Shown here: positions 1-1,334 of the stretch, in pieces
Layout of the letters: every line of letters starts with the position of its first letter
How positions within the stretch are numbered: the stretch's first letter is position 1
Assembly: GCF_003334305.1 (NCBI RefSeq)
Contig: NZ_QOWS01000058.1
Source of the DNA: Escherichia coli
GTDB lineage: Bacteria > Pseudomonadota > Gammaproteobacteria > Enterobacterales > Enterobacteriaceae
Reading direction: 5' to 3' (one strand)
DNA: 1,334 bases
Made by a program: the position numbers and the translations under genes
Notes under the pieces: model-generated
The model's input: only the letters and a program-made list of their open reading frames with translations
What the model was told of the DNA's origin: nothing
The model's database searches: none

Positions 1-1334
1 CCGGACGGGCTTCGCAGCAGCCGGGAGTATGATGAGAAGGGAAGGCTGACGGCGGAGACCTCGCGCAGCGGTGAGACAACGCGGTACAGCTATGATGACC
101 CGGCGAGTGAGCTGCCGACAGGGATACAGGACGCGACGGGCAGTACAAAACAGATGGCATGGAGCCGTTACGGTCAACTGCTGGCCTTCACGGACTGCTC
201 GGGGTACACGACGCGGTATGAGTACGACCGGTACGGTCAACAAATCGCCGTTCACCGGGAGGAAGGCATCAGCACTTACAGCAGTTATAACCCGCGTGGG
301 CAACTGGTCAGTCAGAAGGATGCGCAGGGGCGGGAGACCCGTTATGAGTACAGTGCCGCAGGCGACCTGACAGCAACGATATCACCGGACGGTAAACGCA
401 GCACCATCGAATATGATAAACGCGGGCGTCCGGTGAGTGTGACGGAAGGCGGTCTTACGCGCAGCATGGGGTATGACGCTGCCGGGCGCATCACCGTGCT
501 GACCAACGAGAACGGCAGCCAGTCCACGTTCCGGTATGACCCGGTGGACAGGCTGACTGAACAGCGCGGTTTTGACGGCCGGACGCAACGTTACCACTAT
601 GACCTGACCGGAAAACTCACGCAGAGTGAAGACGAGGGGCTTATCACCCTCTGGCACTACGATGCGTCGGACCGCATCACGCACCGGACGGTGAACGGCG
701 ACCCGGCAGAGCAGTGGCAGTATGATGAGCACGGGTGGTTAACCACCCTCAGCCATACCTGTGAAGGCCACCGCGTGTCGGTCCACTACGGCTATGACGA
801 TAAAGGCCGCCTGACGGGTGAACGGCAGACGGTGGAGAACCCGGAGACAGGGGAGATGCTGTGGGAGCATGAGACGGGGCATGCGTACAGCGAACAGGGG
901 CTGGCGACCCGTCAGGAGCCGGACGGTCTGCCGCCGGTGGAGTGGCTGACGTATGGCAGCGGTTATCTTGCGGGGATGAAGCTGGGCGGAACGCCGCTGG
1001 TCGAGTACACGCGGGACCGGCTGCACCGCGAGACGGCCCGTAGCTTCGGCGGGGCGGGCAGTACAGCGGGGTACGAACAGGCCACGGCGTACACCCTCAC
1101 AGGGCAGCTACAGAGCAGGCACCTGAACCTTCCGCAGCTTGACTGTGACTATACGTGGAACGATAACGGACAACTGGTGCGCATCAGCGGCCCGCAGGAG
1201 TGCCGGGAGTACCGTTACAGCGGCACGGGAAGGCTGACGGGCGTCCACACTACGGCAGCGAACCTGGATATCGATATCCCGTATGCGACGGACCCGGCAG
1301 GAAACCGGCTGCCGGACCCGGAACTGCACCCGGA
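1..1334 (+). CDS. Rhs-family YD-repeat protein, conserved core region (internal fragment; 5' and 3' ends lie outside the window); polymorphic toxin / T6SS-associated effector family
   Basis: Seen in sequence: frame +1 (codon 1 = nt 1-3) has no TAA/TAG/TGA across all 444 codons. The translation contains at least 10 canonical YD-repeat units (consensus roughly Y-D-x-x-G-R-L-T/I) at about 21-residue spacing, plus several degenerate ones, and GC-rich codon usage (ctg, ccg, gcg, acg, cgc, ggc). Established knowledge: this pattern is diagnostic of the Rhs / YD-repeat family, and from memory the translation is clearly homologous to, but not identical with, E. coli K-12 RhsA-type core sequence. The specific paralog cannot be assigned without a database search, so no gene symbol is given. 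Confidence 0.95.
25..831 (+). repeat. Protein-level tandem YD-repeat array within the Rhs core (about 21 codons / 63 nt per unit; degenerate at DNA level)
   Basis: Y of the YD (or YD-like) motif falls at codons 10, 31, 57 (degenerate RYGQL), 75, 96 (degenerate YNPRGQL), 117 (YS), 138, 158, 179, 200, 220, 241 and 265, i.e. nt 28, 91, 169, 223, 286, 349, 412, 472, 535, 598, 658, 721 and 793. Spacing is 20-24 codons between canonical units. Two further units lie at codons 384-392 (YTWNDNGQL, nt 1150-1176) and 404-413 (YRYSGTGRLT, nt 1210-1239). Confidence 0.8.

Follow-up and report, generated by a model that had tools for sequence, protein, structure and literature searches.

A 1,334-nucleotide stretch of Escherichia coli DNA (contig NZ_QOWS01000058.1; the whole stretch is called the window here) lies within a gene annotated as RHS element core protein, and contains at nucleotides 838-1149 a block that separates two canonical YD repeat units of the encoded Rhs protein. 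We find it probable that this block consists of five consecutive YD-derived hairpins of the Rhs cocoon wall, of which two, units 2 and 3, are specialised, are kept under purifying selection and act as a structural keystone. The protein is an already known Rhs core, and the block is a real but ordinary part of its shell wall. Frame 1 of the plus strand is open across all 444 codons of the window, which matches many E. coli chromosomes at 100%. The gene product in strain AMSHJX01 is WP_053266815.1 (1420 aa), and the window is 100% identical to it; window codon n is residue n+491 of this protein, which places the block at codons 280-383 and residues 771-874.

Hairpin register of the YD-less block

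The initial annotation had drawn attention to about 110 codons without a canonical YD motif, and this description holds: codons 273-383 lack a YD motif by regular expression, by Pfam RHS_repeat and by a hidden Markov model (HMM) built from the protein itself. The repeat remnants it had quoted were all recovered in place (AYSEQGLAT at codons 295-303, WLTYGSGYLAGMKLGGTPL at 315-333, EYTRDRLHRE at 335-344 and AYTLTGQLQS at 363-372). The last canonical unit before the block, YGYDDKGRLT (787..816, codons 263-272, plus strand), was found by regular expression and is covered by a Pfam RHS_repeat match over codons 241-275; in a set of 35 non-redundant full-length homologs, its D266 is kept in 31 and its G269 in all 35. 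The first canonical unit after the block, YTWNDNGQL (1150..1176, codons 384-392, plus strand), was found in the same way, with a Pfam match over codons 386-419. A loose YD expression identified units at codons 73, 115, 177, 198, 218, 239 and 263, and the next only at 384. Similarly, the Pfam RHS_repeat matches span codons 10-275 and 386-419 and leave 276-385 empty at E<=10, and the block alone gave no match to TIGR01643 YD_repeat_2x at E<=1 or to any other NCBIfam YD-repeat model. The HMM made from the protein's own canonical units found nothing between residues 767 and 866 even at E<=1000. Up to residue 766, Pfam detects 11 units in a row, and after that one confident unit (877-910) in the remaining ~40% of the shell; the block thus marks the beginning of a half that is more divergent overall and is not an island between canonical arrays, and the gap is less exceptional than it first appears.

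Judged by HMM or by the YDxxGRL consensus, the units of the block are not canonical YD/RHS repeats (PF05593); judged by period, predicted hairpins and positional homology, they are YD units, since they share with the canonical repeat (PF05593, TIGR01643, YDxxGRL[I/T]) both the hairpin and the ~21-residue period. The positions equivalent to the Asp of the YD motif fall at codons 266, 297, 318, 339, 365, 387 and 407, with spacings of 31, 21, 21, 26, 22 and 20 residues, so the 21-residue register is broken only by one 10-residue and one 5-residue insertion. An AlphaFold2 (AF2) model of residues 61-1260, built on the 35-sequence alignment (model index = window codon + 431), has a mean predicted local distance difference test score (pLDDT) of 86.3, a predicted template modelling score (pTM) of 0.77 and ~67 shell strands, and its top Foldseek matches are Rhs cocoons, with template modelling (TM) scores up to 0.88. 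Antiparallel strands are modelled at codons 271-279, 286-296, 302-307, 313-318, 322-328, 331-338, 344-349, 358-364, 370-375 and 382-386, joined by turns that include NPETGE (in a lengthened hairpin), G-S-G (three residues), G-G (two residues) and D-R-L-H-R (five residues, the size of a YD turn). The pLDDT of the block is 81-90, apart from the loop at codons 350-359 (~70), compared to 90-95 in the canonical region. No helix, insertion domain or excursion was predicted in the block by AlphaFold2.

The features that make up this register are all on the plus strand. The block is entered through an extended hairpin with the turn NPETGE (811..888), the strands of which (codons 271-279 and 286-296; AF2 E702-710 and E717-727) have a pLDDT of 87-94. 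The first spacing is 31 residues, where 21 is usual, because this hairpin is lengthened; the NPETGE insertion is missing from many homologs in the alignment. Unit 1, HAYSEQGLAT (880..909), is a degenerate YD hairpin with Ser in place of the Asp. Units 2 and 3 follow and form the two specialised hairpins of a conserved core, LPPVEWLTYGSGYLAGMKLGGTPLVEYTRDRLHRETAR (928..1041, codons 310-347). Unit 2, WLTYGSGYLA (943..972), derives from F-x-Y-D-x-x-G-x-L and has a tight three-residue GSG turn instead of the five-residue DxxGR turn of the canonical repeat, between AF2 strands E744-749 and E753-759; in its register, T317 corresponds to Y(-1), Y318 to D(0), G321 to G(+3) and L323 to L(+5). Unit 3, YTRDRLHRETAR (1006..1041; AF2 strands E762-769 and E775-780), keeps a YD-type five-residue turn, D-R-L-H-R, with His, Arg and Glu substituted for the Gly, Tyr and Leu of the canonical unit (R338 at Y(-1), D339 at D, H342 at G(+3), R343 at Arg and E344 at L(+5)). 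The variable loop GGAGSTAG (1048..1071, codons 350-357) is modelled as a loop at 781-788, with a pLDDT of 70 for model residues 781-790, and is followed by unit 4, TAYTLTGQLQ (1084..1113), a degenerate YD hairpin in which the Asp is replaced by Thr. The NPETGE-turn hairpin and the GGAGSTAG loop would both be tolerated insertions.

Near the block, the sole real break in the hairpin array of the AF2 model is a 34-residue stretch (residues 919-952, model 859-892) that is almost wholly non-beta with one short helix. This stretch, which lies partly past the window end, contains an invariant D-x-A-x-N (DPAGN, window 1291-1305) and, downstream of it, D-N-R.

Origin and conservation of the hairpins

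In the 35 homologs, unit 1 has the consensus H-x-Y-D-x-L-G (D in 18, Y in 25 and G in 27), with HYEYDELGNL in Tse15 and HRYDELGNL in RhsA as its counterparts, and unit 4 has the consensus Y-D-x-x-G-R-L (D in 20, G in all 35 and R in 21), with EYDRCGRL as its counterpart in RhsA. Because both units are canonical YD in relatives, AYSEQG and AYTLTG are degenerations specific to the E. coli lineage, and units 1 and 4 are ordinary YD hairpins that lost their Asp in that lineage only. The ancestry of units 2 and 3 was traced in 18 plasmid-borne Rhs/YD proteins picked by tblastn similarity to the whole shell, 15 of which were aligned with the E. coli protein. Plasmid Rhs proteins that lack the motif have a canonical YD unit at the position of unit 2 (FGYDRDGSF, FEYDIAGRI, YGYDALGAL), and at unit 3 the sample forms a graded series from IDYDAGGRERLRR through LARDRMGRETLRE to FERDALHREVxR, or in short form from YDxGGRE through RDxxGRE to RDxLHRE. 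This alignment fixes the YD register of both units. Six of the 18 plasmid proteins carry the full motif, and the RDxxGRExxR / RDxx[GH]RExxR half is also found in Paracoccus, two Ralstonia and one Streptomyces protein of the same sample.

We also asked how far the block is conserved, as the initial annotation had described it as well conserved in E. coli Rhs cores. A homolog search with codons 255-444 returned nearly exclusively short E. coli fragments, a set that informs close-range conservation only, and among the Enterobacteriaceae fragments YGSG[YWH] and RDR[LM]HRE are each present in 38 of 39. Comparison with K-12 rhsD (77.6% nucleotide identity), split by segment, revealed amino-acid differences at only 3% of the core (1/38; codons 310-347) with synonymous differences at 21%. 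The canonical codons 1-279 differ by 23% and 29%, respectively, block part 1 (codons 280-309) by 27% and 23%, and block part 3 (codons 348-383) by 42%, with indels, and 11%. All flanks other than codons 348-383 fall within 23-27% for amino-acid and 20-29% for synonymous differences, and the amino-acid deficit of the core has a binomial P of 6e-4. Since synonymous change in the core is near normal and amino-acid change is missing, the constraint acts on the protein and not on the DNA. Strong conservation is thus borne out for WLTYGSGYLAGMKLG.TPLVEYTRDRLHRE, which is moreover conserved beyond E. coli in Tse5, RhsA, Tse15 and an Advenella VgrG-Rhs protein at 26-35% identity. However, it does not extend to the whole block: mean conservation of residues 771-874 is 0.49, compared to a shell mean of 0.50 in the 35 homologs, and codons 348-383 (window 1042-1149) vary more than any other part of the window between E. 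coli paralogs, differing at 28-42% of amino acids and, in GGAGSTAG, also in length. No part of the region is less conserved than this loop (6-29%), which carries indels between E. coli paralogs.

In the 35 full-length homologs, residues 806-835 rank second among all 30-residue windows of the protein, behind the aspartyl autoprotease motif. Within unit 2, all 35 homologs have L316, G319 and G321, and 34 have Y318; within unit 3, R338, D339, L341, H342, R343, E344 and R347 are invariant (35/35), in columns that are biased by the search pattern. Four independent checks support the ranking, among them the plasmid sample above and the core profile below. Of 54 genome loci retrieved with no other pattern than RDxLHRE, 53 have YGxG[HYW], which was not part of that selection. 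Finally, L, Y, G, G, R, D, H and R are common to four solved relatives that were picked for overall similarity and have 26-35% identity. Elsewhere in the window, positions 505-594 (residues 660-689, NENGSQSTFRYDPVDRLTEQRGFDGRTQRY) form the fourth most conserved 30-residue window of the protein, with N660, N662, F668, D671, R675 and D683 near-invariant.

The core signature of ~38 codons, WLxYGSG[HYW]...[FY]xRDxLHRExxR, occurs in one copy per protein. A profile of the core found one site each in 7q97, 8cp6, 8qja and 8uy4, that is, in four of the seven type VI secretion system (T6SS) Rhs effectors with solved structures, and at E<=10 found nothing in S. bongori Rhs, Rhs1, RhsP, YenC2 or teneurins. 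The motif is retained in Gamma- and Betaproteobacteria and in one Polyangiaceae metagenome-assembled genome (MAG). Giant YD-repeat proteins that match codons 1-272 only make up most of the 150 top-scoring representative matches to the 444-aa window; among these 150, the block is absent from every giant protein and occurs in only six, all Rhs-core orthologs. Taken at the level of sequence, the motif is the signature of one large Rhs clade that is mostly T6SS-associated and proteobacterial, and the fold does not need it. One representative protein of 1090 aa has two copies of the block (residues 95-187 and 441-544), which points to an Rhs core that is chimeric or has undergone an internal duplication.

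The proteins with solved structures allow a closer comparison. Pseudomonas aeruginosa Tse5 (PDB 8CP6) and P. protegens RhsA (PDB 7Q97) have the same fold as the E. coli model (Foldseek TM 0.80/0.88 and 0.75/0.86, respectively), and Tse15 and the Advenella VgrG-Rhs core were also among the Foldseek matches. The motif is single-copy and at the equivalent place in both Tse5 (YGPGH at 703, RDALHRE at 722) and RhsA (YGSGH at 926, RDRLHRE at 946), and the DUF6531 N-terminal plug of Tse5-type proteins (PMC10684867) is present in the E. coli protein too. In contrast to Tse5 and RhsA, the E. coli clade has Tyr or Trp, not His, after GSG, and its protein lacks the YD Asp in units 1 and 4 and has a longer hairpin, an extra variable loop and different toxin domains. 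The structures 7q97, 8cp6 and 8uy4 share both the core motif and a DCSG turn with E. coli, and 8qja shares the core motif. The E. coli protein itself carries the core motif (codons 315-347) and DCSG (codons 65-68), the pair of signatures by which we provisionally define a Tse5/RhsA-type Rhs subclade. Shells that lack the motif have the same spiralling YD beta-cocoon and a lower structural similarity to the E. coli model, with TM scores by query length of 0.58-0.71 for the T6SS shells of S. bongori Rhs (8QJB-D), P. laumondii Rhs1 (7PQ5) and V. parahaemolyticus RhsP (8H8A/B) and of 0.14-0.54 for TcB-TcC (4O9X, 4IGL) and the teneurins.

Structural keystone or functional site

In the Tse5 structure, the Tyr before the Asp and the closing Leu of the YD motif face the cavity and DxxGR forms the turn (PMC10684867). 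This description, combined with our register, puts Arg829 and Glu835 of unit 3 at the inward Tyr and Leu positions, so they should face the cavity as cross-strand neighbours. In unit 3, the Arg and Glu that take over from the inward Tyr and Leu would probably form a charged pair across the strands, facing the cavity. On one edge of the spiralling sheet, the GSG turn (unit 2) and the DRLHR turn (unit 3) are predicted to adjoin and to form a single conserved patch, which most likely packs on the adjacent spiral turn and would act as a structural keystone at the strip edge. Both units are specialised hairpins under strong protein-level purifying selection in one large Rhs effector clade. The block is not a separate domain, and a catalytic site is unlikely.

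Several points weigh against a keystone of this kind. The register and a published general description are the source of the assumed side-chain directions, salt bridge and packing partner. The seven invariant charged or His residues exceed what a purely structural role usually needs. The motif is absent from the solved T6SS Rhs shells of S. bongori, P. laumondii Rhs1 and V. parahaemolyticus RhsP, which implies that the cocoon fold does not need it, and its residues are not mentioned in the Tse5, RhsA and Tse15 structure papers. Finally, the 35 homologs were retrieved by the patterns PPV[EA]WLTY and [FY][TE]RD[RA]LHRE, and conservation in those columns is circular.

We considered whether RDxLHRExxR, YGSGH and DCSG could together form a functional site for docking, latching or catalysis, which we judge unlikely. 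Such a site might act as an inter-layer Cys/His latch for shell opening, possibly metal-mediated, make contact with the C-terminal plug or with unfolded toxin, or supply residues for the N-terminal autocleavage of RhsA and Tse5, the mechanism of which is reported as unresolved (PMC10684867, PMC8765631). It could explain the charged and His residues that stay invariant at 26-35% overall identity, and it could also explain the company that the motif keeps. DCSG (193..204, codons 65-68, plus strand) is a non-YD turn that is invariant in the motif-bearing clade: in the 35 homologs, D and S are kept in 35 and C and G in 34, and the turn is found in RhsA, Tse5, Tse15 and 35 of 41 genome loci. In the plasmid Rhs proteins, it is present in 6/6 that have the motif and in 0/9 that lack it (Fisher P = 2e-4, uncorrected for phylogeny). 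However, this co-occurrence could stem from shared ancestry alone. In all four lineages, including Tse5, RhsA and the E. coli protein, DCSG is located 250-263 residues (~24 strands) upstream of the core motif, at the opposite edge of the strip. Rhs structure papers describe 76-80 shell strands and three sub-structures or layers, so that ~24 strands approximates one turn of the spiral, an estimate made by counting. The distance between DCSG and the motif is near this estimate, and the two patches may face each other across the layer seam, a placement that relies on strand counting and is confounded by shared ancestry. The inter-layer cleft of Tse15, which its authors propose as the toxin exit, would fit a site of this type.

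Other observations speak against a functional site. The Tyr or Trp at position 813 in E. coli clade I, where a His would be expected, weakens any His-based site. The main text of the Tse5 paper (2.45 A) and the RhsA paper report no metal or ligand, and the only mentions of metal, cysteine or disulfide in the two papers concern purification by immobilised metal affinity chromatography, Tse5 Cys41 and the RhsA C538/H530/H555 site. The contacts of the Tse5 N-terminal fragment described in the main text involve residues 114-134 and 326-363, not 700-730; we therefore rejected the motif as an anchor of this fragment. The most specific form of the idea, in which the YGSGH, RDxLHRE and DCSG turns touch across the layer seam as a clade-specific Cys/His/Asp latch, hydrogen-bonded or possibly metal-held, that is loosened for toxin release or N-terminal processing, would be a long shot.

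Ordinary repeat decay, with an apparent conservation due to the close kinship of the compared sequences, does account for units 1 and 4 and the variable loop, and Pfam misses most of the C-terminal shell anyway. As an explanation of the core it seems decidedly improbable to us, because the core motif spans Gamma- and Betaproteobacteria and the Polyangiaceae MAG, and the core is second in full-length conservation only to the protease motif.

The initial annotation had favoured a structurally distinct, constrained element of the shell over a simple hairpin repeat. We find it very improbable that the whole ~104-codon block is such an insert or sub-domain interrupting the YD array. The missing YD-repeat HMM match inside the block and a pLDDT slightly below that of the canonical region are what one might expect of a distinct element. 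However, AF2 predicts continuous hairpins throughout, the units keep the 21-residue register but for the two insertions, relatives have canonical YD units at the corresponding positions, and block-wide conservation is average, with part 3 hypervariable. At the level of the predicted model and of sequence homology, the block aligns as ordinary YD hairpins, and the proposal of a distinct element is not supported. We also rejected the block as an equivalent of the TcB/TcC junction, which in S. bongori is at residue 745/746 (bioRxiv 10.1101/2024.02.26.582050) and when scaled falls ~110-150 residues upstream of the motif.

We give almost no credence to conservation of the core at the DNA level through homologous recombination or gene conversion. 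In its favour, Rhs cores are a classic target of recombination (Jackson et al. 2009, PMC2935791), and 76% of core codons are identical to rhsD compared to ~48% in the canonical flank. The synonymous/non-synonymous split nevertheless rejects it: core synonymous differences lie inside the range spanned by the flanking segments other than 348-383, three of four in all, and the excess identity is due entirely to missing amino-acid changes. The peptide motif is also kept at 26-35% protein identity in Pseudomonas, Burkholderia and Acinetobacter, which no longer share similarity at the DNA level.

Gene context and significance

The remainder of the protein has the organisation of an RHS element core protein or T6SS Rhs effector, to which it belongs by similarity to NCBIfam NF041261 (RHS_core): the window matches profile positions 488-931 of 1261 with E = 2e-274, for a model whose curated cut-off applies to the whole protein, and the block alone matches positions 767-870. 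A PAAR-like N-terminus was recognised by eye, the DUF6531 plug domain is at residues 49-126 (E = 2e-19), and the full protein has at least 13 Pfam RHS_repeat matches that make up a YD array with a predicted beta-cocoon fold. Beyond the window are the PF03527 'RHS protein' domain (residues 1157-1192) and the DPIGL autoprotease motif within YYDPLQGRYITQDPIGL, the most conserved window of the protein. By sequence, the C-terminus has an Rhs-associated core that carries the aspartyl autoprotease motif DPxGL, with a variable toxin after it. The C-terminal domain (L001:8428-8619, residues ~1301-1364) contains an HEFAH motif and has a weak Peptidase_M91 match (E = 0.076), and may be a metallopeptidase-like toxin.

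In AMSHJX01, an 'RHS element protein dsORF-h1' gene is located downstream, pptA/yddH/nhoA are nearby, and no vgrG or other T6SS genes were found in 13 kb around the gene. Directly upstream of the intact rhs gene (L001:1-3505) are a frameshifted second RHS core pseudogene and IS1/ISAs1 transposase remnants. E. coli-type Rhs cores with 74-100% identity also occur on short contigs in Akkermansia, Lentisphaerae, Oscillospiraceae and Collinsella MAGs and on a 433-base Frankia contig, which most likely reflects mis-binning or contamination.

What this analysis adds to a known protein is a map that divides lineage-specific decay of YD units from a 38-residue, single-copy clade signature, whose conservation almost equals that of the autoprotease motif. 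If the signature were indeed an inter-layer latch or docking site, it would provide a defined set of residues that bears on how Rhs cocoons open and release their toxins.

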